DNA from: an uncultured bacterium
GTDB taxonomy: Bacteria > Margulisbacteria > WOR-1 > JAKLHX01
Direction: 5' to 3'
Length of the DNA stretch: 64,000 nt
Assembly (NCBI GenBank): GCA_964597815.1
Contig: CAZQZN010000003.1
Span: 8,519 to 72,518 of the forward strand
Part shown: positions 30,505 through 56,291 of the stretch, piece by piece
Layout of the letters: each line of letters starts with the position of its first letter
Numbering within the stretch: position 1 is the first letter of the stretch
Position numbers and translations under genes: made by a program
The notes under the pieces: model-generated
The model's input: only the letters and a program-made list of their open reading frames with translations
Told to the model about the DNA's origin: nothing
Databases searched by the model: none

Positions 30505-30523
30505 ACTTAAAATCTCGGGGGAT

Positions 30524-33836: not shown

Positions 33837-33878
33837 TATACAAAAATTTCTTTTGTTATTATATTTCCGGAGGAATAA

Positions 33879-35635: not shown

Positions 35636-35636
35636 A

Positions 35637-37910: not shown

Positions 37911-37911
37911 A

Positions 37912-38490
37912 ATGAATAAGGCAGTTTTTCTTGACAGAGATGGAGTAATAAATCAGCTTATCGTAAATCCATTGACACAAGAGGTTGAATCTCCGAATAA
38001 TCCCTCTGAATTAGTAATATTACCCGGTGTGATTGAAGCTTTAAAAAAAATCTTAAAGGCTGATTATTTGCTTTTTATTATCTCTAATCAACCAAGTTAT
38101 GCAAAAGGCAAAACCTCTTTGGAAAATCTTTTTGCTGTTCATGATAAGTTGCATTCAGTTTTTGTTGAAAATGGGATACTTTTTTCGGAGTATTATTACT
38201 GTTATCACCATCCTGAAGGGATTATCCCAGAATATTCAATAAAGTGTGATTGCCGAAAACCCGGTCAAAAAAATGTTATTGATGCCATAAAAAAATATAA
38301 TCTTGATGTTAATAAATCTTGGTTTGTTGGCGATCAGGATATGGATATTGAGTGTGGGAAAATTGCTGGCATAAAAACGATTTTAATTGAAAATGAATTG
38401 TCAATTTCAAAAAGAGGCAAAACTAATCCTGATTATTTTGCAAAAAATCTGCCACAAGCAGTTGATATAATATTAAAAAATGAAAGTTAA
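37912..38490 (+). CDS. gmhB: D,D-heptose 1,7-bisphosphate phosphatase (HAD-IIIA)
   Basis: AVFLDRDGVIN, GDQDMD. 192 aa. Confidence 0.8.
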   Translation: MNKAVFLDRDGVINQLIVNPLTQEVESPNNPSELVILPGVIEALKKILKADYLLFIISNQPSYAKGKTSLENLFAVHDKLHSVFVENGILFSEYYYCYHHPEGIIPEYSIKCDCRKPGQKNVIDAIKKYNLDVNKSWFVGDQDMDIECGKIAGIKTILIENELSISKRGKTNPDYFAKNLPQAVDIILKNES

Positions 38491-38501
38491 GGATTAAAAC
38501 A

Positions 38502-39221
38502 ATGAAATTGTTAAAAGATCTGAAAGTAAAAATATTTTCTGATGGTGCAGATATAGATCAAATGAAAGCAGCATATAAGGAAGGCATAATCAAAGGATTT
38601 ACGACCAATCCAACTCTAATGAGAAAGGCCAATGTTTTGGATTATGAAAAATTTGCCAAAGAGCTTTTATCCGAAATAAAAGATCTTCCAATTTCTTTTG
38701 AGGTTTTTTCAGATGATTTTTCTGAAATGGAAAAAGAAGCGCTAAAAATTGCAGGCTGGGGCAAAAATGTCAACATAAAAATTCCAATTACAAATACAAA
38801 AGGGCACTCCTCAATTCCTTTGATAAAAAAACTTTCTGAAAGAGGATTGTTTCTTAATATAACAGCAATTTTGACAATAGAACAAGTAAAGCAAGTTTCT
38901 CAAGCCATTTCCCCAAGTTCCAAAACTATTGTTTCTGTTTTTGCTGGAAGGATAGCGGACACTGGCAGGGATCCCAAGCCGATAATGAAAGAGGCAAAAA
39001 AAATTCTTTCCACCAATGAAAATGCATATCTTTTGTGGGCAAGTTCAAGAGAATTGCTAAATATCTTTGAGGCAGAAGAGTGTGGCTGCGATATAATTAC
39101 GGTAACAAGTGATATTTTGAAAAAACTTCATTTGATCGGCAAAGATTTGTCTGAACTCTCTTTAGATACTGTAAAAATGTTTTATGATGATGCAATGAAG
39201 GCTGGGTACAAAATTTTGTAA
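38502..39221 (+). CDS. Transaldolase / fructose-6-phosphate aldolase family (short TalC/MipB type)
   Basis: FSDGADIDQ, FTTNPTLM, Schiff-base Lys region NVNIKIP. 239 aa. Confidence 0.8.
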   Translation: MKLLKDLKVKIFSDGADIDQMKAAYKEGIIKGFTTNPTLMRKANVLDYEKFAKELLSEIKDLPISFEVFSDDFSEMEKEALKIAGWGKNVNIKIPITNTKGHSSIPLIKKLSERGLFLNITAILTIEQVKQVSQAISPSSKTIVSVFAGRIADTGRDPKPIMKEAKKILSTNENAYLLWASSRELLNIFEAEECGCDIITVTSDILKKLHLIGKDLSELSLDTVKMFYDDAMKAGYKIL

Positions 39222-39267
39222 TTTTGCTATTTCAGAATATGGCTGTTTTATAAATCGGAGACATTTA

Positions 39268-40371
39268 TTGGAAAAAATTGATTTTGCTATTATTGGTGCT
39301 GGGGTTATAGGGCTGTCGATCGCATATAATCTTTCAAAAAACAAATCAGCTGAGATAGTTGTATTTGAAAAAAATGATTCTTTTGGGCAGGGAATATCAA
39401 GCAGAAACAGCGAAGTGATCCACGCTGGAATATATTATCCAATAAATTCATTGAAAAGCCGCCTTTGCATTAATGGCAATAAATTGCTTTATGAGTTTTG
39501 TCAAGAACACAGTATTCCGTTTAATAAATGCGGGAAAATTATCGTTGCTACTAATGGTTCCGAATTAAAACTGTTGGATAAAATTTTTGACAATGCTGTT
39601 GATTGCGGTGCCTCAGGCTTAAAAAAACTTACAGAAAAAGAAATAAAAAACATTGAGCCGGAAGTTTTTGCTGTTGGGGGGATATATTCATCGGAAAGCG
39701 GAATATTAAATACTCATTCCCTCATGCAAAAATTATTTGACTTATCAAAAGATAACGGTGTTATGTATTCTTTTAAGAGTGAAGTTGTTGATATAAAAAG
39801 AAAAGACGATGGTTATTATATAAAATCTCAAAAAGAAGAAATACTTACAAAATTTGTGATAAATTGTGCCGGGTTGCAAAGTGATAAAATAGCAAAGATT
39901 GCTGGATTTGATATTGAAAAACTCGGGTATAAAATTTATTATTGCAAAGGTGATTATTTTGCTGTTTCTTCTTCAAAGGATAAATTGAAACATCTTGTTT
40001 ATCCAGTTCCTCATGAAAAAGGTTATGGTTTGGGAGTACATGCAACTATAGATTTGTCCGGCAGAATAAGGTTAGGCCCGGATGCAAATTATGTTGATTT
40101 AGAAAATTATGAAGTTGATTCAAACAAATTAGATGATTTTTATCAATCTGCCAAAAAATATCTTCCATGGCTAAAAAAAGAATATCTTATGCCCGACACT
40201 TCTGGCATAAGGCCAAAGATTCAAGGTCCTGATGATTCAATTAAGGATTTTATCATAAATGAGGAAAGCGAGAATGGTTTTCCTAATTTTATTAATTTAA
40301 TTGGAATTGAATCTCCGGGATTGACAAGCTGTTTAGCTATTGCCGATCTCGTTGATGAAATTATTGACTGA
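39268..40371 (+). CDS. FAD-dependent oxidoreductase (DAO / L-2-hydroxyglutarate oxidase-like)
   Basis: FAD motif IIGAGVIGLSIAY. TTG start. 367 aa. Confidence 0.7.
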   Translation: MEKIDFAIIGAGVIGLSIAYNLSKNKSAEIVVFEKNDSFGQGISSRNSEVIHAGIYYPINSLKSRLCINGNKLLYEFCQEHSIPFNKCGKIIVATNGSELKLLDKIFDNAVDCGASGLKKLTEKEIKNIEPEVFAVGGIYSSESGILNTHSLMQKLFDLSKDNGVMYSFKSEVVDIKRKDDGYYIKSQKEEILTKFVINCAGLQSDKIAKIAGFDIEKLGYKIYYCKGDYFAVSSSKDKLKHLVYPVPHEKGYGLGVHATIDLSGRIRLGPDANYVDLENYEVDSNKLDDFYQSAKKYLPWLKKEYLMPDTSGIRPKIQGPDDSIKDFIINEESENGFPNFINLIGIESPGLTSCLAIADLVDEIID

Positions 40372-40469
40372 TTATTTAAAAATTTTTAGATTGATTTTGA
40401 TGTGGTAATTGATAATTTTTTATTTGCTTAAATTTTCATAGCGGTGCATATGCCAAACTTATTGTGCGA

Positions 40470-40498
40470 TTGACAACAAATTGCTATATTGCTATAAT
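40470..40498 (+). promoter_or_regulatory. Perfect-consensus sigma70 promoter (TTGACA, 17 nt spacer, TATAAT) at the head of the nonulosonate sub-operon
   Basis: ttgaca at 40470-40475 and tataat at 40493-40498, inside a 175 nt intergenic gap and ~45 nt upstream of the Fe-ADH start. Confidence 0.55.
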
Positions 40499-40546
40499 GT
40501 TCAAAAATTGAACGGTTGTATTTAAATTACTTGGGGTGTTTTTATT

Positions 40547-41704
40547 GTGAGGGATTTTAGATTTTTTTTGTCAACAGATTTGAGGTTTGGTAATAATCAA
40601 TGCTTAAAATTGCCTGATTATATAAAAGATTTAGGTCATTCTAAAATTGCTTTGATTATCGATAATGGAGTCGTAAATAACCAACAGGTCATTAAATGTA
40701 TTAATTCACTAAAAGATAATAATATTTCCTTTGATATTTATGTAAACGAATCTGTTGAGCCAACTTATGATTATCTTGAAGATTTTAGAAAAAGATTCAT
40801 TGGCAAAAGTTATGATTGTTTGGTAGGAATAGGTGGCGGAAGCACTCTCGATCTTACAAAGGGTATTGCCACACTTTTAACTAATGATGGAGAAGCTATA
40901 TCATTTAGAGGATTCCCAAAATTAAAGAACAAACCTCTTCCAATTATTGCAATTCCAACAACTGCTGGGACGGGAAGCGAAGTTACCTATAATGCTGTAT
41001 TTACGGATTCAAAAGAAAAGAAAAAACTCGGAATTAATTCCACATTAAATTTTCCATCTTTAGCTATTATTGATCCTTTGATCTATATTGGAATGCCTGA
41101 AAAAGCTGCAATTTCTTCTGGATGCGATGCTCTTGTCCATACATTAGAAAGTTATGTTCATAAAAACAATACTCCAATTTCAAGAATTTTTTCTAAAGAA
41201 GCATTCCGATTGTTATTCAATAATCTAAACAGGTTATTGGAAGATTTTAACAATACTGATATTTGGGGAGCGCTTTCATTAGGCGCTTATTTAGCAGGTA
41301 TTGCGCTTATAAATGCGGGATCTGGGCCTTCTGGCGCATTTTCTTATCCGCTTGGGGCCGTTTATAAAGTGCCACATGGATACGCTGGCGCAGTTTTTAT
41401 TTCCAAAATTACAAAAATAAATGTTGAAAAAGGATATACTGATTATGCGGATCTTTACGATTTGATAGAAGGAGCTGATAAAACTATTTCAAACGAAGAT
41501 AAAAATTTAAAGTTTGCTGTTGAGTTACAAAATTTAATGGATAAGTTAAAAGTCCCAAGAAATTTAAGGGATTTTGGTTTAAAAAAGCCTGATATTGAAT
41601 TTTTGCTGTCACAATATGATATTTTAAAAGGGGCAATTGATCAAAACCCTATTGAAATAACTAAAGAAGATTGCAAAAAAATGTTTCAAGAATTATTTGA
41701 ATAA
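40547..41704 (+). CDS. Iron-containing (group III) alcohol dehydrogenase family protein
   Basis: GGGSTLDLTKGIA and AIPTTAGTGSEVT, the metal-binding His region. GTG start. Confidence 0.75.
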   Translation: MRDFRFFLSTDLRFGNNQCLKLPDYIKDLGHSKIALIIDNGVVNNQQVIKCINSLKDNNISFDIYVNESVEPTYDYLEDFRKRFIGKSYDCLVGIGGGSTLDLTKGIATLLTNDGEAISFRGFPKLKNKPLPIIAIPTTAGTGSEVTYNAVFTDSKEKKKLGINSTLNFPSLAIIDPLIYIGMPEKAAISSGCDALVHTLESYVHKNNTPISRIFSKEAFRLLFNNLNRLLEDFNNTDIWGALSLGAYLAGIALINAGSGPSGAFSYPLGAVYKVPHGYAGAVFISKITKINVEKGYTDYADLYDLIEGADKTISNEDKNLKFAVELQNLMDKLKVPRNLRDFGLKKPDIEFLLSQYDILKGAIDQNPIEITKEDCKKMFQELFE

Positions 41705-41717
41705 AAGGAGAAAACTT

Positions 41718-42890
41718 ATGCCTGGTTGGGAACTTATAGGGAAAGAAGAAAGAGATGCTGTAAATGAAATATTTGACAATGGGGGAGTTTTATATAGATA
41801 TGGGCTAAATGATAAAAGAAAAAACATTTTTCGTGTGGATATGTTTGAAAATCAGGTTGCAGAAAAAGTTGGCACCAAACATTGTTTATGTGTAAATACT
41901 GGGACAGCGGCTGTAAAGCTAGGATTAATTGGACTTGGTGTTAAAGCCGGCGATGAAGTTATCACTCAGTCTTTTACTTTTATTGCAACAGTTGAAGCAA
42001 TTCTTGAATTGGGAGCAAAGCCAGTAATATGCGAGATTGATAAGACACTTAATATGGATCCAATTGATCTTGAAAGGAAGATTACCAAAAAGACAAAAGC
42101 AATAATTCCAGTACATATGGCTGGAGTTGCAGCAAAAATGGAGGAAATTGTAGAAATTTCAAAGAAGAATGGAATCCCAATATTAGAAGATAGTTGTCAG
42201 GCAATGGGAGGTATGTATAAAGGCAAATATTTAGGAGCCATAGGCGATGCCGGGACATATAGCCTTGATATTGGAAAAGCAATTACAACTGGTGAGGGTG
42301 GGCTTTTGGTAACAAACAATTTTGAGATATTTCGAAAGGCAAAGGAATATTCTGATCATGGACATGAAAACAACCCATCATTGCCGCGTGGAGAAGATAC
42401 AAGAACCACATGGGGATTTAATTATAAAGCTACAGAGTTTGTTGGTGCTGTTGGCATGGCACAGCTGAAAAAACTTGATTACATTATCTCTAAACAAAGA
42501 GAAAATAAAAGAAAAATTAAAGATTCTCTTAAAGATATTAAGAAAATTGAATTTAGAGAGCTTCCTGATGAAAAAGGAGATGCTGGTGATACATTGATAT
42601 TTTTTGTTGAAAACAGAGATAAAGCTTCATTATTCGCAAGAAAACTTATTTCAAAAGGCATAGGCACAAAAAATCTTCCAGACGCTATAAATTGGCATTA
42701 TGCCGGCACTTGGACTCAGGTGTTTTATGATTTTGATGAATACAAAGGTAAGGACTTGGAAAAGGTTTGGTCTCAGTCAACAGATTATTTAAGAAGAGCC
42801 ATTGCTCTTCCAATAATGGTAAATATGAGTGATGAAAGAATTGAACAGGTAATAAATATTGTAAAGGAAATCGCTAATGAGGTTTTGTAA
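41718..42890 (+). CDS. DegT/DnrJ/EryC1/StrS family PLP-dependent sugar aminotransferase
   Basis: PLP-Lys context YSLDIGKAITTGEGG. RBS aaggag. Confidence 0.8.
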   Translation: MPGWELIGKEERDAVNEIFDNGGVLYRYGLNDKRKNIFRVDMFENQVAEKVGTKHCLCVNTGTAAVKLGLIGLGVKAGDEVITQSFTFIATVEAILELGAKPVICEIDKTLNMDPIDLERKITKKTKAIIPVHMAGVAAKMEEIVEISKKNGIPILEDSCQAMGGMYKGKYLGAIGDAGTYSLDIGKAITTGEGGLLVTNNFEIFRKAKEYSDHGHENNPSLPRGEDTRTTWGFNYKATEFVGAVGMAQLKKLDYIISKQRENKRKIKDSLKDIKKIEFRELPDEKGDAGDTLIFFVENRDKASLFARKLISKGIGTKNLPDAINWHYAGTWTQVFYDFDEYKGKDLEKVWSQSTDYLRRAIALPIMVNMSDERIEQVINIVKEIANEVL

Positions 42891-43532
42891 ATGAACAAAT
42901 TGAGTTTTCTTGGTGTTATCCCAGCACGAGGCGGAAGCAAGGGGATACCAAAGAAAAATATTAAAATAATAGCGGGGAAACCTCTTATTGCATGGACAAT
43001 AGAATCAGCAAAAAAATCAAAACTGTTGGATCATTTTGTTGTTTCTACTGAGGATGCTGAGATTGCTCAAATTTCTAGAAGCTATGGTGCGGAAGTGATT
43101 GACAGGCCATTTGAACTTGCAACCGATGAAGCAACAACCATTTCTGTGCTTCAACATGTTCTTACAAAGATTGAATCTGAAAACATTGTTCTGCTTCAGC
43201 CCACTTCTCCTGTTAGAGATATTGATTTGATTGATCAATGCATCAAAAAATTTGACTTTACAAAAGCCGACAATCTTGCAACTGGATTTGTTTGCAAATT
43301 GTTTGAATATGGGGCATATACTCAAAGGAGACAGGACTTAAATGGTTTTTTTCATGATGATGGCAATGTTTATGTAGTAAAATCAGATCTTATCAAAAAA
43401 GGAACTTTGTATGGAGAAAATGTTGAACGCCTTGAAATTTCAAAAGAGCAAAATTTTGAAATTGATGATGAATTTGATTTTTGGTTGAACGAACAAATAC
43501 TGCTAAAAAGGATAAGCGAGGGTAGGCAATAG
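42891..43532 (+). CDS. Acylneuraminate cytidylyltransferase family (CMP-nonulosonate synthetase, NeuA/LegF-like)
   Basis: GVIPARGGSKGIPKKNIKIIAGKPLIAWTIESA. 213 aa. Confidence 0.8.
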   Translation: MNKLSFLGVIPARGGSKGIPKKNIKIIAGKPLIAWTIESAKKSKLLDHFVVSTEDAEIAQISRSYGAEVIDRPFELATDEATTISVLQHVLTKIESENIVLLQPTSPVRDIDLIDQCIKKFDFTKADNLATGFVCKLFEYGAYTQRRQDLNGFFHDDGNVYVVKSDLIKKGTLYGENVERLEISKEQNFEIDDEFDFWLNEQILLKRISEGRQ

Positions 43533-43611
43533 TTGAAAAAATATTTTGGTATCGAGAATGAGGTTGTATGGAATAACGATTGTATTTTTATTTTAGTAGG
43601 AAGAAGTAAGT

Positions 43612-44652
43612 ATGGAAATTAAGATAAACAATAAAAAAATCGGCAAATACAACCCCGTTTTTATCATCGCTGAAGCTGGTGTGAACCATAATGGCAGCTT
43701 AAAATTGGCAATGAAAATGGCTGATGCTGCCAAAGATGCCGGTGCAGATGCGATTAAGTTTCAAACATTTAAAACGGAAGAACTCGTAACCCAAATGGCT
43801 CCAAAAGCGAATTACCAAAAAAAAACTGTACCGGGCAAATCACAATTTGAGATGCTTAAGAACCTTGAATTATCACAAAATGATTTTAAGAAATTATTTG
43901 AGTACTGCAATAGAAAAAAAATTATTTTTTTGTCAACTCCGTTTGATTTTGAAAGTGCTGAATTTTTGAATAAATTAGATGTACCAGCTTTCAAAATTAG
44001 CTCTGGAGATTTAACTAATATTCCTCTCTTATTACAAATAGCAAAATACAAAAAACCAATAATTTTATCAACAGGAATGTCGACGCTTACTGAAATAACA
44101 GATGCTGTCAAAATAATTTATTCTACTGGCAATAAAAAATTGGTTTTGCTTCACTGTACTTCAAACTATCCAACTAAATTTGAAGATGTTAATTTGCGAG
44201 CAATGGATACCATAAGAAAAAATTTCAATACACTAGTTGGATATTCAGATCATACTGAAGGAATTGAGATAGCAATTGCGGCTGTGGCCATGGGGGCAAG
44301 TTTATTGGAAAAACATTTTACTTTGGACAAAACTTTGCCGGGGCCGGATCATAAAGCATCTTTGGAACCACAAGAGTTTATGAAAATGGTTAAAGCCATA
44401 AGGAATGTTGAAATATCTTTTGGAAACGGGATAAAGAAACCGGAAAGGTCTGAAATGGAAATTAGAAGGATAGCTCGCAAAAGTATAGTAGCGGCAGTAA
44501 ATATTCCAAAAGGAACAAGATTAACAAAAAATATGCTTGCCATAAAACGGCCGGGGGCGGGGATTGAGCCAAAGTATTTAGAGCAATTAATCAACCGAAA
44601 AGCTAAGATCAATATTAAGAAAGATCAAGTTTTGACTTGGGATTTGTTATGA
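43612..44652 (+). CDS. Nonulosonic acid synthase (NeuB/LegI/PseI family) with C-terminal SAF domain
   Basis: FIIAEAGVNHNG, HCTSNYP, SAF domain at the C-terminus. Confidence 0.85.
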   Translation: MEIKINNKKIGKYNPVFIIAEAGVNHNGSLKLAMKMADAAKDAGADAIKFQTFKTEELVTQMAPKANYQKKTVPGKSQFEMLKNLELSQNDFKKLFEYCNRKKIIFLSTPFDFESAEFLNKLDVPAFKISSGDLTNIPLLLQIAKYKKPIILSTGMSTLTEITDAVKIIYSTGNKKLVLLHCTSNYPTKFEDVNLRAMDTIRKNFNTLVGYSDHTEGIEIAIAAVAMGASLLEKHFTLDKTLPGPDHKASLEPQEFMKMVKAIRNVEISFGNGIKKPERSEMEIRRIARKSIVAAVNIPKGTRLTKNMLAIKRPGAGIEPKYLEQLINRKAKINIKKDQVLTWDLL

Positions 44653-45797
44653 AACGAAAAGTATGTGTTATTACTGGAACTAGGGCAGATTATGGAATCC
44701 TTAATCCTGTAATGCATGCTATAAGGAATAGTAAAAATTTAAGTTTATACATTATAGCAACATGTATGCATCTTATGAGGGAATTTGGTTTTACGATTAG
44801 AGAAATTGAAAGAGATGGATTTAATATTTATGAAGGAGTAGATATTTCTTATAAGGAAGATAGCGGAGAAGCAATGGCTTATTCTATCGGTAAAGCAACC
44901 TGTGCCTTTTCTAGAAGTCTTGCTAGGCTTAAGCCAGATATTGTAATTGTTTTGGGTGATCGAGGAGAAATGCTTGCTGTTGCAATTGCGTCAAATTATC
45001 TTGGCATTCCTGTTGCTCATATTCATGGGGGCGAGCAATCTGGGCATGTCGATGGGATTTTGCGCCACGCTATTACTAAATTAGCACACATTCATTTTCC
45101 AGCGACAGAAAGCGCAAAAAAAAGAATAATTAGGCTTGGTGAAGATCCTAAAAAAATTTTTACTGTTGGGGCACCTTCATTAGACAGAATTTTAAATGAG
45201 AATTTGCCTAACGAGAAAAATCTTGTGAAAAAATATGGCATTAATAACAAAAAGCCTTTAGCTTTACTTGTTCAGCATCCTGTTCTAACAGAGAGCGAAA
45301 ATGCTGAAAGACAAATGAGAATTTCTTTAGAAGCCATTAAAGGTCTCAAACTACAAACCTTAGTGATTTATCCTAATGCAGATGCTGGTGGAAGACAAAT
45401 GATAAAAGTTATCAAACAATACAACAATTTTTCTTTTATAAGGTCGATTGAAAATATTCCTCACAAAGATTATTTAGGTTTAATGAGAATTGCTTCTGTT
45501 CTTGTTGGTAATTCCAGCAGTGGAATAATTGAAGCTCCTTCTTTTAAGTTGCCTGTGGTAAATATTGGAATAAGGCAAGAAGGCAGAGAGCGAAGCACAA
45601 ATGTTCTTGATGTTCCTCATGATAAAAACGCAATTGTAAGAGCCATCAAGAAAGCACTATATGATAAAAAGTTTAGAGAAAAAGTTAAAAGATGTAAAAA
45701 TCCTTATGGTGATGGGCATGCTGCGGAAAGGATTGTAAAAGTGTTAAGCACTATAAAGTTAGATAAAAATCTTTTACAAAAGCAGATTACATATTAG
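44649..45797 (+). CDS. UDP/GDP-N-acetylglucosamine 2-epimerase, hydrolysing (NeuC/LegG-like)
   Basis: VCVITGTRADYGILNPV, HIHGGE. ATGA overlap with the upstream gene. Confidence 0.8.
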   Translation: MKRKVCVITGTRADYGILNPVMHAIRNSKNLSLYIIATCMHLMREFGFTIREIERDGFNIYEGVDISYKEDSGEAMAYSIGKATCAFSRSLARLKPDIVIVLGDRGEMLAVAIASNYLGIPVAHIHGGEQSGHVDGILRHAITKLAHIHFPATESAKKRIIRLGEDPKKIFTVGAPSLDRILNENLPNEKNLVKKYGINNKKPLALLVQHPVLTESENAERQMRISLEAIKGLKLQTLVIYPNADAGGRQMIKVIKQYNNFSFIRSIENIPHKDYLGLMRIASVLVGNSSSGIIEAPSFKLPVVNIGIRQEGRERSTNVLDVPHDKNAIVRAIKKALYDKKFREKVKRCKNPYGDGHAAERIVKVLSTIKLDKNLLQKQITY

Positions 45798-45807
45798 GAG
45801 TTTAGAA

Positions 45808-46437
45808 ATGTCCAAAATTTTGATTTTTGGAGCGGGAGGGCATGGCAAGGTTGTTTTAGATATTTTGCTTGAATCAGGAGCAGATGTTTTGGGGTTTCTT
45901 GATGATGATATTTCTAAGATTGGTTCTGTTGTTAACGGCAAAAAAATTATTGGAAATTTAGAATATCTAAAAACAAATCGAAATATTGGTTTGGCATTGG
46001 GGTTGGGAAACAATAAAATTAGAGAAAAAGTTTTTAATTTTGCAAGAGAATTAGGAGTTGAAGTTGTAAATGCGATACATCCAAAAGCTGTTGTGTCAAG
46101 AAATGTAAAACTATCAAAAGGTATAGTGATTATGCCCGGTGCAGTAGTGAATACCAATGCTTTTATTGAGGATGGAGTTTGTGTTAATACTTGTGCATCT
46201 GTCGATCATGATTGTTATTTGAAAAAATTTTGTCAGATTTGGCCGGGAGCCAATTTAGCTGGTTCAGTTCAAGTGGGGGGATATTCGTATGTTGGGACCG
46301 GCGCTTCAATTATTCAAAATGTAAAAATTGGCAATAATGTTATTATTGGCGCTGGCGCGGTAGTAATTTCAGATATTCCTGATGGTGTAACAGCTGTTGG
46401 AGTTCCAGCAAGGATAATAAAGGAAAATAATATATGA
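45808..46437 (+). CDS. Hexapeptide-repeat sugar N-acetyltransferase (PglD/NeuD/LegH-like)
   Basis: N-terminal Rossmann-like ILIFGAGGHGKVVLDIL, C-terminal left-handed beta-helix repeats. Confidence 0.8.
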   Translation: MSKILIFGAGGHGKVVLDILLESGADVLGFLDDDISKIGSVVNGKKIIGNLEYLKTNRNIGLALGLGNNKIREKVFNFARELGVEVVNAIHPKAVVSRNVKLSKGIVIMPGAVVNTNAFIEDGVCVNTCASVDHDCYLKKFCQIWPGANLAGSVQVGGYSYVGTGASIIQNVKIGNNVIIGAGAVVISDIPDGVTAVGVPARIIKENNI

Positions 46438-47810
46438 GTAAAAAAAGCATTAAGGAAGCATTAGCAAAAGAGAATTCTTCAATCAAAGAAGTGATGAGGT
46501 TGATTGATCACTCAGGTCTTAGAGTTGCATTTGTTGTTGATAAGCATAATAAACTTTTGGGTGCTGTTAGCGATAGTGAAATCAGAAAAGCAATTCTCAA
46601 GGGTAAGGATGTAAAGGAACCTGTGAAAGGTATTTTAAACCCTAACCCAATTGTATTGATGGAAAAAGATTTGTCGAATGACTATCTTGTTAAAAAAACT
46701 GTTCGAAAATTACTAGAGCGTATGCCCGATAGCAGATTTATTTTAGTTTTGGACGAAAAATGTAGACCAAAGAAGTTGTTGCCTTTGTCTGAATCTCTTT
46801 ATGGCAAGAAAAAAAAGTTAATAAATAATAAAAGTGTGCTTGTAGTAGGTGGAGCTGGATATTTAGGTTCGGTATTAGCAAGAAAACTTCTTGAGAGAGG
46901 ATTTAAAGTTAAAGTTTTGGATATTCTTATGTTTGGGTCTGAATCAATAAAAGAGCTTTTGGGAAAAGAAAACTTTTCTTTAATTGAAGGTGATATGCGA
47001 AATATTTCAACCCTTACTCAAGCATTAATTGATGTTGATGCGGTTGTAAATCTTGCGGCAATTGTTGGAGATCCCGCCTGCAAAGTAACTCCTGAAGCGG
47101 CAATCGAAACCAATTATTTGGCCAACAAAACTTTGGCTGAGGCATGTAAGTATCACCAAATCAATCGATTTGTTTATGCGTCTACGTGTAGCGTTTATGG
47201 ACAAATGGATGGTGATAATGAGCTTACCGAAGAATCTCCATTAAATCCTGTGTCTTTATATGCCAGATCAAAGATTCAATCTGAAGAAGGGATATTAAGT
47301 TTGGTTGATGATAATTTTTCTCCGACAATTTTGAGGATGAGCACTTTGTACGGATATTCTCCAAGGATGCGTTTTGATTTAGTAGTTAACACAATGACCA
47401 AAACTGCGGTAATAGATAAAAGAATATATGTACACGGTGGCGGAAAACAATGGAGGCCACTTTTAAATGTGAAAGATGCGGCAAATGCTTTTATCAAATG
47501 TTTAGAAGCACCAATAAACGAAATAAGGGGGGAAGTATTCAATGTTGGTTCAAGCGCTCAAAATTATCAAATAATTGAAATTGCCAACATTGTAAAAAAA
47601 TGTATTCCCTATGCAGAAATTATCAAGGAAGGAGAATCAACAGATCCTAGAAATTACTTTGTTTCATTTTCTAAAATTGAGAAAAAACTTAACTATAAAG
47701 TTGAAAGAGGATTGGAAGAATCAATTTTGGAAATTAAAAACGCAATTGAACAAGGCATAATAAGTAATGTAAACGACTCAAAATATTACAATGTGGAGTA
47801 TAACCAATGA
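46434..47810 (+). CDS. CBS-domain-fused NAD-dependent sugar-nucleotide dehydratase/epimerase (LegB/PseB-like catalytic domain)
   Basis: N-terminal ~115 aa CBS pair, then SDR Rossmann VLVVGGAGYLGS and catalytic YARSK. Confidence 0.75.
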   Translation: MSKKSIKEALAKENSSIKEVMRLIDHSGLRVAFVVDKHNKLLGAVSDSEIRKAILKGKDVKEPVKGILNPNPIVLMEKDLSNDYLVKKTVRKLLERMPDSRFILVLDEKCRPKKLLPLSESLYGKKKKLINNKSVLVVGGAGYLGSVLARKLLERGFKVKVLDILMFGSESIKELLGKENFSLIEGDMRNISTLTQALIDVDAVVNLAAIVGDPACKVTPEAAIETNYLANKTLAEACKYHQINRFVYASTCSVYGQMDGDNELTEESPLNPVSLYARSKIQSEEGILSLVDDNFSPTILRMSTLYGYSPRMRFDLVVNTMTKTAVIDKRIYVHGGGKQWRPLLNVKDAANAFIKCLEAPINEIRGEVFNVGSSAQNYQIIEIANIVKKCIPYAEIIKEGESTDPRNYFVSFSKIEKKLNYKVERGLEESILEIKNAIEQGIISNVNDSKYYNVEYNQ

Positions 47811-49003
47811 AAAAATATTTAAGAAATAAAGACAGAATTCCAGCAATATTTGGTGGCACATCTTTTTTTAACAAAGTCATTCCTATAACTGAACCAACTA
47901 TTTCATCTATTTCTGCTTTAAAGAAGAAATATGAAGAGGTTTTAAGGAGCCGGATGATAACTAATTCTAAATATGTAAAAGAGTTTGAAAAAAATGTTGC
48001 AGAATATCTTGGTGTTAAATACGCAGTAGCAGTAAGCAGCTGTACAAGCGGGTTGATGCTTATAATAAAATCTTTAGAGTTAAAAGGCGAAGTTATACTT
48101 CCAAGTTTTACTTTTCATGCTACTGCTCATTCTGTTGTTTGGAATGGATTAAAACCTATTTTTGTTGATTGTGATCCAAAAACTTATAACATTGATCCAA
48201 AAGAAGTAGAAAAAGCTATAACAAAAAAAACGTCAGCAATTTTAGCAGTTCACCTTTTTGGAAATCCAGCAAATACTGAAGATTTGGAAAGGATCGCTAA
48301 AAAACACAATTTGAAACTTATTTTTGATGCTGCACATGCTTTTGGAGCAAAAAGGAGAGGGAAAAATGTTGGAGGTTTTGGTGACGCGGAATCTTTTAGT
48401 CTTAGCCCAACAAAACTTTTAACATCTGGAGAAGGAGGTATTATTGCAACAAATAATAAGGATTTGGCTGAAAAGTTAAAAGTTGCAAGAAATTATGGTG
48501 ATTCTGGGAATTATGACTGCGAATTTACTGGATTTAACGCAAGGATGAGTGAGTTTAACGCTATTTTGGGAATTGAGACATTAAGAATGTTAGAAAAAAA
48601 CGTAAATAGAAGGAACAAAATTGCAAATATTTATAAAAGCGAATTGTCAAAAATTCCCGGTATTTCTTTCCAATACATTTCACCAAGTGACAGAAGCACA
48701 TTTAAGGATTTTTCGATTTATATTGATGAGAATAAATTTGGAATGACGAGAGATGAATTGTATGATGCGGTTTTAAAGGAGAACATAGTTGTGAAGAAGT
48801 ATTTTTATCCTCCAGTACATTTGCAAAAGGCATATAAAAATATTAAAACATTACATAAATTGGACAATACCGAAAATATAACTAGCAGAGTTTTTAGTTT
48901 GCCTCTATATTCTCATATTGATGAAAAAACAGTAAGAAACATTTGTTTTGTTATCAAAAACATTTACGAATACAACTTGAATATAAAACGACTCAGAAAA
49001 TGA
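47807..49003 (+). CDS. DegT/DnrJ/EryC1/StrS family aminotransferase (LegC/PseC-like)
   Basis: FSLSPTKLLTSGEGG PLP-Lys motif. Confidence 0.8.
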   Translation: MKKYLRNKDRIPAIFGGTSFFNKVIPITEPTISSISALKKKYEEVLRSRMITNSKYVKEFEKNVAEYLGVKYAVAVSSCTSGLMLIIKSLELKGEVILPSFTFHATAHSVVWNGLKPIFVDCDPKTYNIDPKEVEKAITKKTSAILAVHLFGNPANTEDLERIAKKHNLKLIFDAAHAFGAKRRGKNVGGFGDAESFSLSPTKLLTSGEGGIIATNNKDLAEKLKVARNYGDSGNYDCEFTGFNARMSEFNAILGIETLRMLEKNVNRRNKIANIYKSELSKIPGISFQYISPSDRSTFKDFSIYIDENKFGMTRDELYDAVLKENIVVKKYFYPPVHLQKAYKNIKTLHKLDNTENITSRVFSLPLYSHIDEKTVRNICFVIKNIYEYNLNIKRLRK

Positions 49004-50181
49004 ATACTTTTGCTTTTATTATCCAAACTCCTTTTACAAATCGTGATTATAAAAGATTTGGTGTTGATCTGCTATTAAATAGAGGCATATCTGTTGATGT
49101 TTTAGATCTTACCAAATTAATCAATCCAAAATATCTTGATTTGTATAAAGTTGAAGATAAATCACTTTATAAAAACATTTACCAAATTTCATCCGTTGAA
49201 CAATTTGAATCTTATGTAAAAAACAACTCTGAAGTTATTTATATAAATTTTATACATGGCAATCCAAAAACATATTTCGTCTATAGAATTTATAAAAAAT
49301 ACAATTCTGTTTATGCAAGTTTTACAGCAAATGCATTACCTGCCTTTACTAAAATTATCAAAGAGCCGAAGTTAAAAAAAATATCTAAAATTTTTAATTT
49401 TCAAATTCTTAAAGAAATTATTTCCAGCAGATTATTTAAACTTGCTGACAAATTGGAGATTATTCAAAAACCCGCTTTTGTTTTGGCGGGTGGAGATGCA
49501 AAAACTAATTACCTGCCCACTCCCACAAAGAAGAGTAAAATAATCTATGCTCATACACTTGATTACGATCTATATTTGGAATATTTAAGAAAAAATAATT
49601 CAAAAGATAGTTCTCCAAAATATGCTGTATTTCTTGATGAATATCTGCCATTGCATCCGGATTTTATTGTTATTGGGGATAGGTTTAAGCCTTATAAAAA
49701 CAATCCCGAATTATATTTTAATGAGATGCGTTATATATTTGATGCTATTGAAAAAGAAATAAAGATGCCGATTGTTATCGCTGCTCATCCAAGAGCGAAA
49801 TACAAAGATACAGATAAATTTTACGGCGAAAGAGAAATTGTAAATGGGAGAACAATTGAATTGGTTGCAGGTTCGAACATTGTCTTGTTGCATTGTAGTA
49901 CATCAATCAATTTTTCGGTCTTATTCAAAAAACCTATGGTTTTTATTTTGCCAAAAGGGCTTAAAGGCGGTTTTTATGATGATCAAATCAGTGGCTTTTC
50001 CAGATTGTTTGGAGTCAATCCTTATTCTGGCAATAATAGTCCGGAGATTTCAAATTACATTGCTCGCTTTGGAAAAGCGTATGAGGAATACAAGCAAAAA
50101 TATATCAAAACCAAAAATTCTCCAGATAAGTATTTTTGGGAAATTGTAAGCGATGAGATTATTTTGAGAGATAAAAAATGA
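49000..50181 (+). CDS. Hypothetical protein. Possible GT-B-like sialyl/ulosonyl transferase, based only on conserved HP motifs.
   Basis: No recognisable family. LHPDF and AAHPRAKYKD motifs. ATGA-coupled to the preceding aminotransferase. Confidence 0.3.
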   Translation: MNTFAFIIQTPFTNRDYKRFGVDLLLNRGISVDVLDLTKLINPKYLDLYKVEDKSLYKNIYQISSVEQFESYVKNNSEVIYINFIHGNPKTYFVYRIYKKYNSVYASFTANALPAFTKIIKEPKLKKISKIFNFQILKEIISSRLFKLADKLEIIQKPAFVLAGGDAKTNYLPTPTKKSKIIYAHTLDYDLYLEYLRKNNSKDSSPKYAVFLDEYLPLHPDFIVIGDRFKPYKNNPELYFNEMRYIFDAIEKEIKMPIVIAAHPRAKYKDTDKFYGEREIVNGRTIELVAGSNIVLLHCSTSINFSVLFKKPMVFILPKGLKGGFYDDQISGFSRLFGVNPYSGNNSPEISNYIARFGKAYEEYKQKYIKTKNSPDKYFWEIVSDEIILRDKK

Positions 50182-50325
50182 GAAATGTAATTGTTTTTGA
50201 ATATGTTGATTTTTTAAATTTGTCGTTATTGTTTATTTTTGTGATTATAATAACTTTCAAAATTGCCAAGATAGTTTTTAGCTGTTTACTTTTGTATTGT
50301 TTAAAAAATATAAAAGGGGTTTTAA

Positions 50326-51867
50326 ATGCTTAAAAAGGAAGATTCCTTAAAGAAAAGATATTTTTACAAACTTATTACCAATTTTGGTGGTATGCTAATG
50401 GGTTTGATAACTGCGGGAATTACTCCTCGCGCTTTAGGCCCTGTTTCTTATGGCAACTATAGCTATTTAACAAATTTCTTCAATCAAGTTGTTAGTTTCT
50501 TAGAAATGGGAACATCTATCGGCTTTTATTCTAAATTATCGAAAAGGCAGAAAGAATCAGGATTGGTAACGTTCTACATCTATTTTTCTACCATTATCTC
50601 CATTTTAATCATACTATTTGTTTTTATTGCATACAAAACTCGAGTACATAATTTATTTTGGCCTAACCAAAATATGATTTTTGTTATTTTGGCTGCAGTC
50701 TTTGGCCTTCTAACTTGGTTTACCCAGATCCTTAACAAAATAACTGATGCTTATGGGCTAACGGTACATGCAGAAGTTATAAAACTTATTCAGCGCGCTT
50801 TGTCAGTGATGATTTTGTTGTTTTTATATTTTTGGGGGATGTTAAATCTTAGAAACTACTTTTATTTTCAGATATTTATATCGTTACTTTTAATTATAGC
50901 TTTATGGCTATTAAGCAAGCAAAAACATAGTACTATAAATTGGAAACTGAATTTTGCGCAAGTTGTTAATTATATAAAGGAATTTTATGAATATAGCCAT
51001 CCTTTGTTTGTATATGCTTTGATTGGATTAATTGTTGGTATTGTGGATCGTTGGATGCTTCAATATTTTAGCGGCAGTGAACAACAGGGTTTTTATGGAT
51101 TATCTTATACAATTGGATCTTTTTGTTTTCTCTTTACCAGTGCAATGCAACCGCTTTTAATGAGGGAATTTTCTATTTCTCATGGCAATAATGATATATT
51201 AAAAATGAGAATTCTTTTTCGAAAATATATACCGTTGCTTTATTCTATAGCTGCATATTTTTCTTGTTTTATTGCTATTCAGGCAAAAAATGTAATATAT
51301 ATTTTTGGAGGCAATAAATATGCTTCGGCTGTTTTGCCAGTTGCAATAATGGCCTTTTATCCAATTCATCAAACTTATGGCCAACTAAGCGGATCGGTGT
51401 TTTATGCCACTGAACAAACAAGGATATATAGAAACATTGGCACTTTCACTATGGTCATCGGATTAATTGTGAGTTATTTTTTGTTGGCTCCCAAAAATAT
51501 GTTTGGTCTTGAAGCTGGCGCATTTGGTCTTGCGCTAAAAATGGTGATAGTGCAATTCATAGGAGTTAACATTCAGTTGTTTTTTAATGCGAAATATTTA
51601 AACATTTCTTTTTCTAAGTATTTTTTCCATCAGATATTGTCTTTGGTGTTGCTATCATCCATTTCTTTTTTTTCATATTTCTTGATAGAATTTACCAAAC
51701 TTAACTTTTTCAATGTTTTGATAAAGTTTATTTTGTCTGGCATGATATATACAGGAATTGTAATTACGTTTGTGTTTTTTTTGCCAGAAGTGTTTGGGTT
51801 AAATAGAGCTGATGTTGGCTATATATTTGATTTGGTGATAAAAAGAAAGAAAGGAGAAAATAATTAA
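50326..51867 (+). CDS. Polysaccharide/oligosaccharide flippase (Wzx, MOP superfamily)
   Basis: 513 aa, ~12-14 TM helices, typical Wzx hydropathy. Confidence 0.75.
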   Translation: MLKKEDSLKKRYFYKLITNFGGMLMGLITAGITPRALGPVSYGNYSYLTNFFNQVVSFLEMGTSIGFYSKLSKRQKESGLVTFYIYFSTIISILIILFVFIAYKTRVHNLFWPNQNMIFVILAAVFGLLTWFTQILNKITDAYGLTVHAEVIKLIQRALSVMILLFLYFWGMLNLRNYFYFQIFISLLLIIALWLLSKQKHSTINWKLNFAQVVNYIKEFYEYSHPLFVYALIGLIVGIVDRWMLQYFSGSEQQGFYGLSYTIGSFCFLFTSAMQPLLMREFSISHGNNDILKMRILFRKYIPLLYSIAAYFSCFIAIQAKNVIYIFGGNKYASAVLPVAIMAFYPIHQTYGQLSGSVFYATEQTRIYRNIGTFTMVIGLIVSYFLLAPKNMFGLEAGAFGLALKMVIVQFIGVNIQLFFNAKYLNISFSKYFFHQILSLVLLSSISFFSYFLIEFTKLNFFNVLIKFILSGMIYTGIVITFVFFLPEVFGLNRADVGYIFDLVIKRKKGENN

Positions 51868-52625
51868 TGAACAAAATTAAATTGTTTGGTAAGAATTCTA
51901 TTGGAAGCTGGCTACAGATGCCTAACAGATATTCTGCTGAGATTATGGCAAAATCAGGATTTGACTGGCTTGCTATTGATATGGAACATGGATTAATTGA
52001 TGTGCAAAAAGCATTTGAATTGATTCAGGTAGTTGAACTTGCTGGTTCTATTCCTCTTGTGCGATTGAACGAAAATAATCCAAGCTTAATTCGCAGAGTA
52101 ATGGATGCTGGTGCAAAGGGTGTAATAGTGCCGATGGTCAATACAGCTGAAGATGCTCAAAAAGCAGTTGACGCAGTTAAATATCCTCCGGATGGGAAAA
52201 GAAGTTATGGCTTGGGACGTGCCCATGAATTTGGTAAAAATTTTTCTGAATATATCAAAACTATTAATACAGAAAGTATCGTAGTTGTTCAAATAGAACA
52301 TATCAATGCATTTTTAAATCTAGATTCAATATTAGGGGTTAAATCTATTGATGCGATAATCATTGGCCCTTATGACCTTTCGGGCTCTATGGGTATTGCT
52401 GGAAAATTTGATGATGATAAGTTTCAAGAGGCGGTCAATAAAATTATTGAAAAAGTTAAAAAACATAATATTGCTTTGGGGATACATATTGTTCACCCAA
52501 GTCTGGATGATTTAAAACAAAGAGTATCTCAAGGATTTTCTTTTATAGGATTTGGAATGGATACTATATTTTTATCAGATGGGTGTGCAAAAGCAATAAA
52601 AGAATGTAGGAAGATAATAAAATGA
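51867..52625 (+). CDS. HpcH/HpaI family class II (pyruvate/2-oxoacid) aldolase
   Basis: TIM-barrel aldolase family pattern (IGSWLQMP...AEIMAKSGFDWLAIDMEHG, GPYDLS). Confidence 0.7.
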   Translation: MNKIKLFGKNSIGSWLQMPNRYSAEIMAKSGFDWLAIDMEHGLIDVQKAFELIQVVELAGSIPLVRLNENNPSLIRRVMDAGAKGVIVPMVNTAEDAQKAVDAVKYPPDGKRSYGLGRAHEFGKNFSEYIKTINTESIVVVQIEHINAFLNLDSILGVKSIDAIIIGPYDLSGSMGIAGKFDDDKFQEAVNKIIEKVKKHNIALGIHIVHPSLDDLKQRVSQGFSFIGFGMDTIFLSDGCAKAIKECRKIIK

Positions 52626-53611
52626 AAATTTATGACCTAATGAGCCCGAAAGAAGAATATTATAAAGTTCTTAAACAAAGAGAAATAGATGGTATTGCTT
52701 TTTATGAGAAATACCATAAAGATTTTGTTTTAACAAATTGTCCCGCCTGTGGTGAAGGTGGCATTAATTCATTCGAAAAGTATGGTTTTGAACATAAAAC
52801 ATGCAAAAATTGCAAGACTCTATTTGTTTCGCCAAGACCAACAGATGAAATACTTTCCATTTATTACAATGAATATTCTGCACCTAAAATGTGGACTGAA
52901 TTATTGTTAAAAACCGATGTGCAAAGGAAAGCAATGCAATATTTGCCCAGAGTAGAAATGATAATTAATAGGATTAGAAATCTTGGAATTAATAAAATGG
53001 AAAGAGTTGTTGATCTTGGTGCTGGTTCGGGCGCTTTTTCAATCTGCTTGCAAAAATCAGGTTTTTTTGATGAAGTAATTGCTATTGATCTTTCTGAAGA
53101 GTGTGTTAAGGCTTGTCAATCCCAAGGATTAAAAACAATCCTTGGCTCTGTGGAAAATATTGAAGATGAATCGATAGATTTAATTTGCATGAATGATTTA
53201 TTTGAACATCTTTTTGATTGTTCCAAAATGCTTAGTGGGTGTTTTCGTGCGCTTAAAAAAAATGGGTTTATTTCAATTGCAACTCCAAATGGGGAGGGTT
53301 TTGATTTCAAAATAATGAAAAAGAATACAGTTAATATTACTCCACCAGAACATTTAAACTATTTTAATCCTATTTCAATGGAGATTTCTCTATCTAAAGC
53401 AGGATTTATGCCAATTTTGGTTGAAACCCCCGGCAAACTTGATGTTGAAATTGTATTGAGAGAGAAATTTTCTGGTTTTTCTTTATCGGAAAGAAACGAA
53501 TATATAAATTATCTATTAGAACAAGAAGAGCAAGTCATAAACAATTTTCAAGAATTTCTTTCTAAAAACAAACTTTCAAGCCATATGTTTGCAATGGCTC
53601 AAAAGAAATGA
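52622..53611 (+). CDS. Class I SAM-dependent methyltransferase with N-terminal Cys4 zinc ribbon (paralogue A)
   Basis: CPACGEG...CKNCKTLFVSPRP, SAM motif VVDLGAGSGAF, C-terminal SSHMFAMAQKK. Confidence 0.65.
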   Translation: MKIYDLMSPKEEYYKVLKQREIDGIAFYEKYHKDFVLTNCPACGEGGINSFEKYGFEHKTCKNCKTLFVSPRPTDEILSIYYNEYSAPKMWTELLLKTDVQRKAMQYLPRVEMIINRIRNLGINKMERVVDLGAGSGAFSICLQKSGFFDEVIAIDLSEECVKACQSQGLKTILGSVENIEDESIDLICMNDLFEHLFDCSKMLSGCFRALKKNGFISIATPNGEGFDFKIMKKNTVNITPPEHLNYFNPISMEISLSKAGFMPILVETPGKLDVEIVLREKFSGFSLSERNEYINYLLEQEEQVINNFQEFLSKNKLSSHMFAMAQKK

Positions 53612-53627
53612 AAAGAGGAGAAGAAAA

Positions 53628-54404
53628 ATGAAAATAATCGGTATTATTCCTGCGCGTATGGCTTCAAGTAGATTTCCGGGGAAACCATTAGCAAAGATAT
53701 TTGGAATACCTATGATCGGCCATGTTTATTTTAGAAGCAAAATGTGCAAGTTGCTAGATGAAGTATATATTGCAACCTGCGATAAAGAAATTGTTGAATA
53801 CTGTAATTTTATTGGTGCAAAATCTGTAATGACCAAGGACACTCATGAGAGGGCATCTGATAGGACTGCTGAAGCAATGCTAATTATAGAAAAAGAAATT
53901 GGGGAAAAAATAGATATAGTGGTTATGATTCAAGGTGATGAACCTTTGATCTATCCCGAAATGATTAGTGAAGCAGTTAGACCGCTAATTAAAGATGTAC
54001 AAGTCTTGGTCTCAAATCTAATGGCTCCTATAACAAAGGAGGAACAGGACGACCCTAATGAGGTAAAAGTGGTATTTGACAGAAATGATTATGCCCTATA
54101 TTTTTCAAGGGAACCGATACCTTCATGGAAAAAAGGTGCGAAAGAAGTCCCAATGTATAAACAAATTTGCATTATTCCTTTTAGGAGGGATTTTCTTTTG
54201 AAATTTAATGAGCTTATGCCTACTCCGCTTGAAATAGTAGAATCTATCGATATGCTTAGGATATTAGAACATGGTTATAAAGTAAAACTTGTTAGGACCA
54301 ATTTTCTAACTTACAGTGTGGATACTTTACAGGATTTGATGGATGTTGAAGAATTGATGAAAAATGATAATCTTTTTGAAAAATATAAAGGCCAAAACAA
54401 ATGA
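53628..54404 (+). CDS. CMP-ulosonate synthetase of the KdsB (CMP-Kdo synthetase) family
   Basis: MKIIGIIPARMASSRFPGKPLAKIFGIPMI and the QGDEPL motif. RBS agaggag. Confidence 0.75.
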   Translation: MKIIGIIPARMASSRFPGKPLAKIFGIPMIGHVYFRSKMCKLLDEVYIATCDKEIVEYCNFIGAKSVMTKDTHERASDRTAEAMLIIEKEIGEKIDIVVMIQGDEPLIYPEMISEAVRPLIKDVQVLVSNLMAPITKEEQDDPNEVKVVFDRNDYALYFSREPIPSWKKGAKEVPMYKQICIIPFRRDFLLKFNELMPTPLEIVESIDMLRILEHGYKVKLVRTNFLTYSVDTLQDLMDVEELMKNDNLFEKYKGQNK

Positions 54405-55384: not shown

Positions 55385-55385
55385 A

Positions 55386-56288: not shown

Positions 56289-56291
56289 AAA

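Follow-up and report, generated by a model that had tools for sequence, protein, structure and literature searches.

A CBS-domain-fused short-chain dehydrogenase/reductase in a predicted legionaminic-type nonulosonate operon of an uncultured Margulisbacteria bacterium

What is a pair of CBS domains doing on the putative entry enzyme of a bacterial sugar pathway, and which sugar does that pathway make? The question is raised by six genes at 42891-49003 of a 64,000-nucleotide stretch of DNA (the window) from an uncultured bacterium of the Margulisbacteria (GenBank assembly GCA_964597815.1, contig CAZQZN010000003.1, positions 8,519 to 72,518), which has about 33% G+C and carries nearly all of its genes on the + strand. 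Here, we propose as a fairly probable reading that the genes from 40547 to 50181 form one operon making a CMP-activated 5,7-diacylamido nonulosonic acid of the legionaminic type (dependent on NeuC and NeuB, with a D-manno precursor), the product of which is probably transferred by the operon's own enzyme. The exact sugar is uncertain because the entry enzyme, a short-chain dehydrogenase/reductase (SDR) with an N-terminal CBS pair (hereafter CBS-SDR), resembles a simple sugar oxidase more than the expected dehydratase.

The six open reading frames (ORFs) are real and co-directional, lying where the earlier note on this DNA had placed them. They encode the following proteins, the fifth of which is given as its two domains:

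42891..43532, + strand: short (213 aa) CMP-nonulosonate synthetase, NeuA/LegF/PseF-like (CTP_transf_3, E 4e-24)
43612..44652, + strand: NeuB-type nonulosonate synthase with a SAF domain (NeuB PF03102, E 4e-103)
44649..45797, + strand: NeuC/LegG-type hydrolysing 2-epimerase of nucleoside diphosphate N-acetylglucosamine (NDP-GlcNAc) (TIGR03568, 462 bits, cutoff 236)
45808..46437, + strand: PglD/NeuD/LegH-type hexapeptide N-acetyltransferase (PglD_N and Hexapep; TIGR03570, 222 bits, cutoff 161)
46434..46796, + strand: CBS pair (Bateman module), residues 1-121 of the 458-aa fusion protein (Pfam CBS at residues 12-55 and AlphaFold2 model)
46827..47810, + strand: extended-SDR catalytic domain, residues 132-458, Cj1427-like, predicted C4-oxidising entry enzyme (PF01370, E 1e-47)
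47807..49003, + strand: DegT-family sugar 4-aminotransferase 2 (DegT-2), partner of the SDR (PF01041, E 3e-109)

The six genes are translationally coupled. Direct reading of the sequence finds ATGA start/stop overlaps at 44649, 46434, 47807 and 49000, which join the NeuB-like gene to the NeuC-like gene, the PglD-like gene to the SDR gene, the SDR gene to DegT-2, and DegT-2 to the gene of a GT-B-fold protein downstream. The NeuC-like ORF opens at a TTG at 44637, and it is the ATG at 44649 that overlaps the NeuB stop. Both the C4 aminotransferase gene and the acetyltransferase gene adjoin the SDR gene, the latter (with its PglD_N domain) lying between it and the NeuC-like gene.

The NeuB, NeuC and PglD assignments are supported by curated cutoffs. 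The NeuB homologue clears the cutoff of the N-acetylneuraminate synthase model (TIGR03569, 490 bits against 400) and stays under that of the PseI model (320 bits against 340), while the NeuC-like protein, well above the cutoff of the hydrolysing 2-epimerase model, scores only 133 bits with the non-hydrolysing WecB model. The assignment of DegT-2 is at the family level only, its top model being DesI (346 bits, under the model's cutoff) and its LegC score 214 bits (cutoff 420). The earlier note had read the genes as a legionaminic rather than a pseudaminic module, and this has held. A pseudaminic acid pathway could appeal to sub-threshold matches of the NeuA-like protein to the PseF model (135 bits, cutoff 206) and of the DegT proteins to the PseC model; however, a NeuC-type hydrolysing 2-epimerase is present, the NeuB homologue falls on the NeuB side of the two cutoffs, and there is no PseB-type (PF02719-dominant) dehydratase, PseG hydrolase or GNAT-type PseH within 40547-50181, the PseB model giving 46 bits (cutoff 408). 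We thus regard that pathway as excluded by gene content, with only the very slightest probability left to it.

How might these enzymes work together? In the order that we propose, the CBS-SDR would oxidise C4 of NDP-GlcNAc, the 4-keto sugar would be transaminated by DegT-2, and the new amine would be N-acetylated by the PglD-like enzyme. The NeuC-like enzyme would then remove the nucleotide and invert C2, the NeuB-like enzyme would condense the product with phosphoenolpyruvate, the short NeuA-like enzyme would form the CMP-sugar, with the GT-B protein as the candidate for the final transfer. The substrate is probably UDP-GlcNAc, because the conserved cassette has no dedicated nucleotidyltransferase. 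The CBS pair, homologous to that of PtmE-type guanylyltransferases, would most likely gate entry into the pathway in response to a nucleotide ligand. The data show the identities of the domains, the order and coupling of the genes, the conservation of the cassette across phyla, the fold and the active-site motif; the substrates, the sequence of reactions, the part played by the CBS pair and any loss of the C6 hydroxyl are inferred.

The fusion on which this proposal turns was also recognised in the earlier note, and the domain and model data bear it out. Pfam finds one CBS motif only (residues 12-55, 30 bits, cutoff 24) ahead of the PF01370 domain; the AlphaFold2 model of the whole protein (mean predicted local distance difference test score, pLDDT, of 89; multiple sequence alignment of 44 homologues) has two beta-alpha-beta-beta-alpha units within residues 1-121, where pLDDT is mostly above 85, and so a full CBS pair is present. 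A disordered linker (residues 123-130) follows, and then the SDR fold. Over 100 protein clusters contain the fusion at full length, which rules out a frameshift or an error of assembly as its source.

What, then, does the SDR do to its substrate? Its catalytic domain matches Pfam Epimerase (PF01370, residues 135-372, 163 bits) and gives only 41 bits with Polysacc_synt_2 (PF02719). The 44 aligned homologues have the motif A-S-[TS]-C-S-V-Y-G followed by Y276-x-x-x-K280, with S250, C252, S253, Y255, G256, Y276 and K280 invariant among them. To call such an enzyme a dehydratase is an interpretation and not a reading of the sequence. A slight balance of probability favours step 1 being carried out by an atypical 4,6-dehydratase, which would remove the C6 hydroxyl and lead to true legionaminic acid. 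In GDP-fucose synthase and GDP-mannose 3,5-epimerase, a cysteine near the position of Cys252 serves as the base at C3/C5, and Cys252 could by analogy be the C5 base of an unusual dehydratase mechanism; Asp213, which is invariant in the SDR family and Ala in Cj1427 (discussed below), could be another candidate residue for dehydratase chemistry.

The company kept by relatives of the enzyme points the same way. The haloarchaeon Halorubrum sp. PV6 makes 5-N-formyl-legionaminic acid and has the cluster legC-legB-legF-legG-formyltransferase-neuD-legI (PMC6137143), the gene set of which is like that described here, with the aminotransferase gene adjoining the SDR gene; other haloarchaea with such an arrangement carry a CBS-SDR. 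In Halomontanus rarus, DegT is directly followed by the CBS-SDR gene, with NeuB and a PglD-like gene nearby, and this haloarchaeal order matches the legC-legB order of Halorubrum sp. PV6. In addition, a Methanoperedens metagenome-assembled genome (MAG) is reported to have a complete legionaminic pathway, with masses of pseudaminic or legionaminic acid detected in the enrichment (PMC11337218), and Methanosarcinales MAGs are among the carriers of CBS-SDR. By analogy, these contexts favour a true legionaminic product without proving it.

Several observations weigh against this reading, and most of them concern the SDR itself. The earlier note had taken it for a LegB-type dehydratase, a designation that we do not retain: its score with the LegB model (TIGR04180) is 99.5 bits, where the cutoff is 475, and is exceeded by its scores for GalE (119 bits) and RmlB (113). 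Among the other SDRs of the window none reaches the LegB cutoff, and no enzyme of the operon reaches the LegB or LegC equivalog cutoff of the NCBIfam models. Its best match in the PDB is 6vo6/6vo8, both by sequence (phmmer, 176 bits) and by fold, with Foldseek placing 6vo8 first for the AlphaFold2 model (template modelling score, TM, 0.93; 36% identity; E 6e-29). According to the Foldseek descriptions, these entries are Cj1427, the NAD-dependent C4-dehydrogenase of GDP-D-glycero-D-manno-heptose, and the closest characterised relative of the SDR is thus an enzyme that does not dehydrate. UDP-GlcNAc, UDP-Gal and UDP-GlcA 4-epimerases come next in the fold ranking, and RmlB dehydratases lower; the grouping with 4-epimerases that the earlier note had named as a result that would tell against it is found in part, in that these enzymes rank second, but it is a C4-dehydrogenase that ranks first. 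In 4,6-dehydratases an acid stands one or two residues past the catalytic Thr (T-D-E in RmlB, T-S-E in GMD, T-D-K in PglF and PseB). The SDR has no Asp or Glu at these acid/base positions, having Cys and Ser there instead, as Cj1427 has Asn and Ser. Cys252 is itself replaced by Ala in three of 83 loci, all three linked to nonulosonate genes, and may for this reason not be essential. Beyond the SDR, the NeuB homologue could not be told apart from true sialic acid synthases, its scores with the PDB references, which include no LegI, being nearly equal (SpsE 227, NmNeuB 219 and PseI 204 bits). An Acidobacteriota subfamily of CBS-SDR (43-45% identity) adjoins another SDR and has no NeuB or NeuC nearby. 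Lastly, the legB (HrrPV6_1047) PCR (polymerase chain reaction) product of Halorubrum is reported to measure only 1,025 bp, a size that may fit a truncated gene call, a protein without CBS domains or another SDR family; among the best 120 matches to the Halomontanus protein, many genera of haloarchaea were represented and no named Halorubrum.

The affinity to Cj1427 is what recommends a second explanation, which we hold to be possible but doubtful: that the CBS-SDR is a Cj1427-type C4-dehydrogenase only, so that C6 is kept and the product is a 9-hydroxy 5,7-diacetamido-3,5,7-trideoxy nonulosonic acid (7-acetamido-7-deoxy-Neu5Ac). The two enzymes have in common the segments T-x-S-x-Y-G, YxxxK and SPRMRxDLxVN, the T-C-S of the one paralleling the T-N-S of the other. 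Cj1427 uses a GDP-heptose substrate and oxidises C4 without dehydration by a ping-pong mechanism, its tightly bound NADH being recycled by the conversion of 2-oxoglutarate to L-2-hydroxyglutarate (PMC10680097). If the CBS-SDR works likewise, its NAD+ could be regenerated by the 2-oxoglutarate released from the partner aminotransferase. Cj1427, however, has no CBS pair, has Asn for Cys252 and Ala for Asp213, the very residues that could supply dehydratase chemistry here, and helps to modify capsule heptose alongside an epimerase and a reductase, where the CBS-SDR stands with an aminotransferase and NeuB/NeuC. To our knowledge, moreover, every natural 5,7-diamino nonulosonate described is 9-deoxy, and a full-text literature search found no natural trideoxy form. 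The haloarchaeal and Methanoperedens contexts also point to genuine legionaminic acid.

Is the CBS-SDR a local peculiarity of this window? It is not, the fusion being widespread. Its full-length homologues make up more than 100 clusters (50-73% identity), which come from MAGs of the candidate phyla radiation (CPR), Omnitrophota, Margulisiibacteriota, Saganbacteria and Peregrinibacteria. When each species was represented by one genome, relatives were encoded in at least 568 of the genomes scanned, both bacterial and archaeal. DPANN archaea, Methanosarcinales, Thermoplasmata and Acidobacteriota are among them, and the cultured haloarchaeal carriers include Halomontanus rarus (TS33), Halomarina oriensis (JCM 16495), Natronorubrum and Natrinema (N. 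gelatinilyticum BND6 being one). The order NeuA-NeuB-NeuC-PglD-CBS_SDR-DegT is kept in three metagenomic contigs (L001, L002 and L003, at 73%, 65% and 51% identity, respectively), where the gene at the NeuA-like position encodes 210-237 aa, and minimal five-gene NeuA-NeuB-NeuC-DegT-CBS_SDR cassettes occur in Kaiserbacteria, Methanosarcinales and DPANN contigs.

To ask how closely the family is tied to nonulosonate genes, 83 CBS-SDR loci were collected with phmmer and split at 390 bits against the window protein (36 close and 47 distant loci). A NeuB or NeuC gene is found no more than 10 kb from the CBS-SDR gene in 32 of the 36 close loci, as against only seven of the 47 distant ones, and in 40 of all 83 an immediate neighbour belongs to the DegT family. 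Most of the 47 distant loci are from Acidobacteriota or Aminicenantes, where the gene adjoins an SDR of about 300 aa that resembles the one at 56292-57158 of the window (L032, L040, L042, L044, L046-L050, L055-L058 and L062-L065, among others), often together with a 2-hydroxyacid dehydrogenase and DegT, a second and different use of the family. Cys252 is common to both context classes. Because of the Acidobacteriota subfamily without NeuB or NeuC, the family is not restricted to nonulosonate synthesis, and it is on the strength of the census and of natural fusions (below) that we place the window gene in the nonulosonate-linked branch of a broad, uncharacterised CBS-SDR family. Two of the cassette contigs carry a second nonulosonate-like module as well (L002 13810-21383 and L003 14897-21377), made up of an SDR, a DegT, a radical-SAM/B12-binding enzyme, a second cytidylyltransferase and a second NeuB paralogue, which in L002 is SpsE-like (298 bits to Bacillus subtilis SpsE) and not PseI-like.

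The same census bears on a third explanation, namely that two unrelated pathways lie side by side, NeuA, NeuB and NeuC with a NeuD-type O-acetyltransferase making N-acetylneuraminic acid, and the CBS-SDR with DegT making a separate 4-amino sugar, for example from a GDP-heptose supplied by genes upstream, as with Cj1427 in Campylobacter. NeuD, NeuB, NeuA and NeuC alone are the sialic acid gene set of Escherichia coli K1; the models that the window proteins pass do not separate NeuB from LegI (TIGR03569) or NeuD from PglD (TIGR03570), HddA-, HddC-, GmhA- and GmhB-like genes lie at 35637-38490, and the Acidobacteriota subfamily shows that the CBS-SDR can work apart from NeuB and NeuC. We rate this explanation as improbable because the SDR and DegT genes stay beside NeuA, NeuB and NeuC across distant phyla, minimal five-gene cassettes included. 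Here they are also translationally coupled to the PglD gene, the acetyltransferase has a PglD_N domain and sits between NeuC and the SDR, and the heptose-type genes, present in six of the 83 loci, are all far under their model cutoffs in the window. The single legionaminic-type pathway remains the reading that we prefer.

Where might the CBS pair have come from? Residues 1-130 were searched against 1.84 billion representative proteins, which gave 54 matches at E <= 1e-10. Ten longer matches were checked with Pfam and all were fused to an SDR or a nucleotidyltransferase, with no other CBS architecture among them; six of the seven checked proteins of 346-363 aa were CBS+NTP_transferase, and one match of 471 aa had four CBS motifs and NTP_transferase. 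The nearest CBS pairs outside the fusion family are thus those of CBS+NTP_transferase (PF00483) proteins, at 40-44% identity (E ~1e-10), an architecture that we take to be that of Campylobacter PtmE, the comparison being with proteins of this type rather than with PtmE itself. The fusion protein shares only the CBS pair with that type, its catalytic domain being SDR PF01370 and not NTP_transferase, and the earlier note was right that the pair sits on a different enzyme here. No CBS-nucleotidyltransferase lies within 10 kb of the CBS-SDR in any of the 83 loci. These comparisons of sequence support the view that a single regulatory module has been passed from one type of entry enzyme to another.

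Other fusions occur in the family. In one natural GNAT-CBS-SDR protein (P0114, 641 aa) the oxidation step is tied to N-acetylation, another is a CBS-SDR-methyltransferase (P0085, 769 aa), and two variants carry four CBS motifs, one with an SDR (P0130, 564 aa) and the other with NTP_transferase (P0128, 471 aa). The CBS pair can also drop out of annotation through the choice of start codon: the RefSeq CBS-SDR of Halomontanus rarus (P0269; NZ_CP119796.1; L022 10001-11422) has 354 aa and no CBS pair, and an ORF with CBS similarity runs 119 codons upstream of its start.

Set beside known systems, the operon is a variant of an established nonulosonate route, with a relocated CBS pair and an entry enzyme unlike LegB or PglF. 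The CMP-legionaminic acid pathway of Campylobacter jejuni (LegB, LegC, LegH, LegG, LegI and LegF, fed by PtmE) has the same six chemical roles and a related CBS pair, which there is presumably on the guanylyltransferase and here is on the SDR. It differs in that the SDR here is no LegB equivalog and lacks the acidic catalytic residue that LegB presumably has, the aminotransferase resembles DesI more than LegC, and the operon has no PtmE, PtmF or PtmA. The UDP-linked route through diacetylbacillosamine (Legionella pneumophila, PglFED) is like the present one in its probable start from UDP-GlcNAc without a dedicated nucleotidyltransferase, its PglD-type acetyltransferase and its NeuC-, NeuB- and NeuA-type late steps, but its dehydratase is PglF-type (Polysacc_synt_2, T-D-K), whereas the window SDR is dominated by PF01370.

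The functional unit is probably larger than the six genes, running from 40547 to 50181, and several further features define it or flank it:

39268..40371, + strand: FAD oxidoreductase, L-2-hydroxyglutarate oxidase family, possible accessory (NF008726, 266 bits, cutoff 299)
40470..40498, + strand: putative sigma-70-like promoter, TTGACA-17-TATAAT with extended TG (consensus match only)
40547..41704, + strand: iron-containing alcohol dehydrogenase (Fe-ADH) family protein, accessory (Pfam Fe-ADH and ADH_Fe_C)
41697..42890, + strand: DegT-family aminotransferase 1 (DegT-1), accessory (PF01041, E 3e-84)
49000..50181, + strand: 393-aa GT-B-fold protein, candidate nonulosonate transferase (AlphaFold2/Foldseek)

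The predicted promoter is the single match to all 12 positions of the sigma-70 consensus within 33500-52000; it lies inside a 176-nt gap 5' of the Fe-ADH gene and is probably where the operon starts. Nine genes follow it without a sizeable gap, namely Fe-ADH, DegT-1, the six nonulosonate genes and the gene of the 393-aa protein. Scans with Rfam and for tRNAs found nothing of relevance to the operon. A gene of the Fe-ADH family is also upstream of the NeuA-like gene in L002, L003, L004, L005 and L017, and elsewhere in L030. The aminotransferase beside it is a DegT in L003 and an Aminotran_3 in L002; DegT-1, which is under every NCBIfam cutoff, is conserved in position in L003, L004 and L017. 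Contigs L002 and L003 have a GT-B gene downstream of DegT too.

Could the GT-B protein be the transferase? It has no Pfam or NCBIfam match, and its 313 homologous clusters are all named 'hypothetical'. Its AlphaFold2 model (pLDDT 90.5; pTM, the predicted TM score, 0.90) resembles GT-B glycosyltransferases, 2-epimerases and PseG in Foldseek (E ~1e-8), and H263-P264 and D213 (in L-D-E-Y) are invariant in its family, recalling what we take to be the HP and D/E-D/E-G motifs of bacterial sialyltransferases. On account of its fold and these invariant His-Pro and Asp residues it is a candidate nonulosonate transferase; neither its sequence nor a family model links it to GT38, GT52 or GT80.

The FAD enzyme upstream of the promoter touches on the dehydrogenase-only explanation of the CBS-SDR, since Cj1427 makes L-2-hydroxyglutarate (PMC10680097) and this protein resembles an oxidase of that compound (253 bits to PDB 3dme, 136 bits to 8w75 and 77 bits to GlpO). 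Among the 83 other loci, only L003 (973-2193) has a counterpart of its gene at the matching position, and in the window the gene precedes the predicted promoter. We have thus downgraded to a lead the idea that it recycles L-2-hydroxyglutarate from the SDR. Further upstream, 35637-39221 holds genes for a GHMP kinase, a nucleotidyltransferase, SIS and HAD phosphatase proteins and a transaldolase, the HddA-, HddC-, GmhA- and GmhB-like genes among which recall a GDP-glycero-manno-heptose pathway; an SDR gene (33879-34826) and a GT2 gene precede this block. GDP-heptose was considered as the SDR substrate and judged unlikely, heptose genes being rarely linked to the CBS-SDR family.

Other parts of the window are set down here for completeness. 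The block at 51867-57158 encodes an HpcH/HpaI pyruvate aldolase, two methyltransferases, a D-2-hydroxyacid dehydrogenase, a 288-aa SDR and a cytidylyltransferase of the KdsB subfamily, above its model cutoff (302 bits against 255); judging from these genes, the product of the block could be a further CMP-activated ulosonic acid, formed by way of an aldolase. At 58452-61522, a 590-aa ORF with no Pfam match is followed by a 441-aa protein matching only the N-terminal half of the DegT profile, and then come a full PseC-like DegT (61519-62664) and a GT2 gene. The TauE/SafE sulfite exporter profile is matched at 30184-30904 by two small neighbouring ORFs, one for each half and in swapped order, the C-terminal ORF (profile 134-237) preceding the N-terminal one (profile 1-109).

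In the literature that we searched, we found no description of a CBS-fused SDR in nonulosonate synthesis; an Aeromonas paper mentions only a 'CBS-domain containing protein' beside pse genes, and the database names of CBS-SDR proteins are generic. Nonulosonic acids decorate flagella, S-layers and capsules, and shape the recognition of cells by phages, viruses and immune systems. Among legionaminic-type modules, the cassette described here seems to prevail in candidate-phyla bacteria and in archaea, DPANN included. For annotators, it matters that some gene calls cut off the CBS pair. If the CBS-SDR is an atypical dehydratase, it would add a third way of carrying out the committed step, in which a cysteine may serve as the C5 base. 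If it is a dehydrogenase only, the product would be a new natural class of sugar, a hybrid of sialic and legionaminic acids, with its cassette in hundreds of mostly uncultivated species and with oxidation and transamination coupled through 2-oxoglutarate and L-2-hydroxyglutarate. Either way, the CBS pair would offer a handle on the control of flux into these costly sugars.

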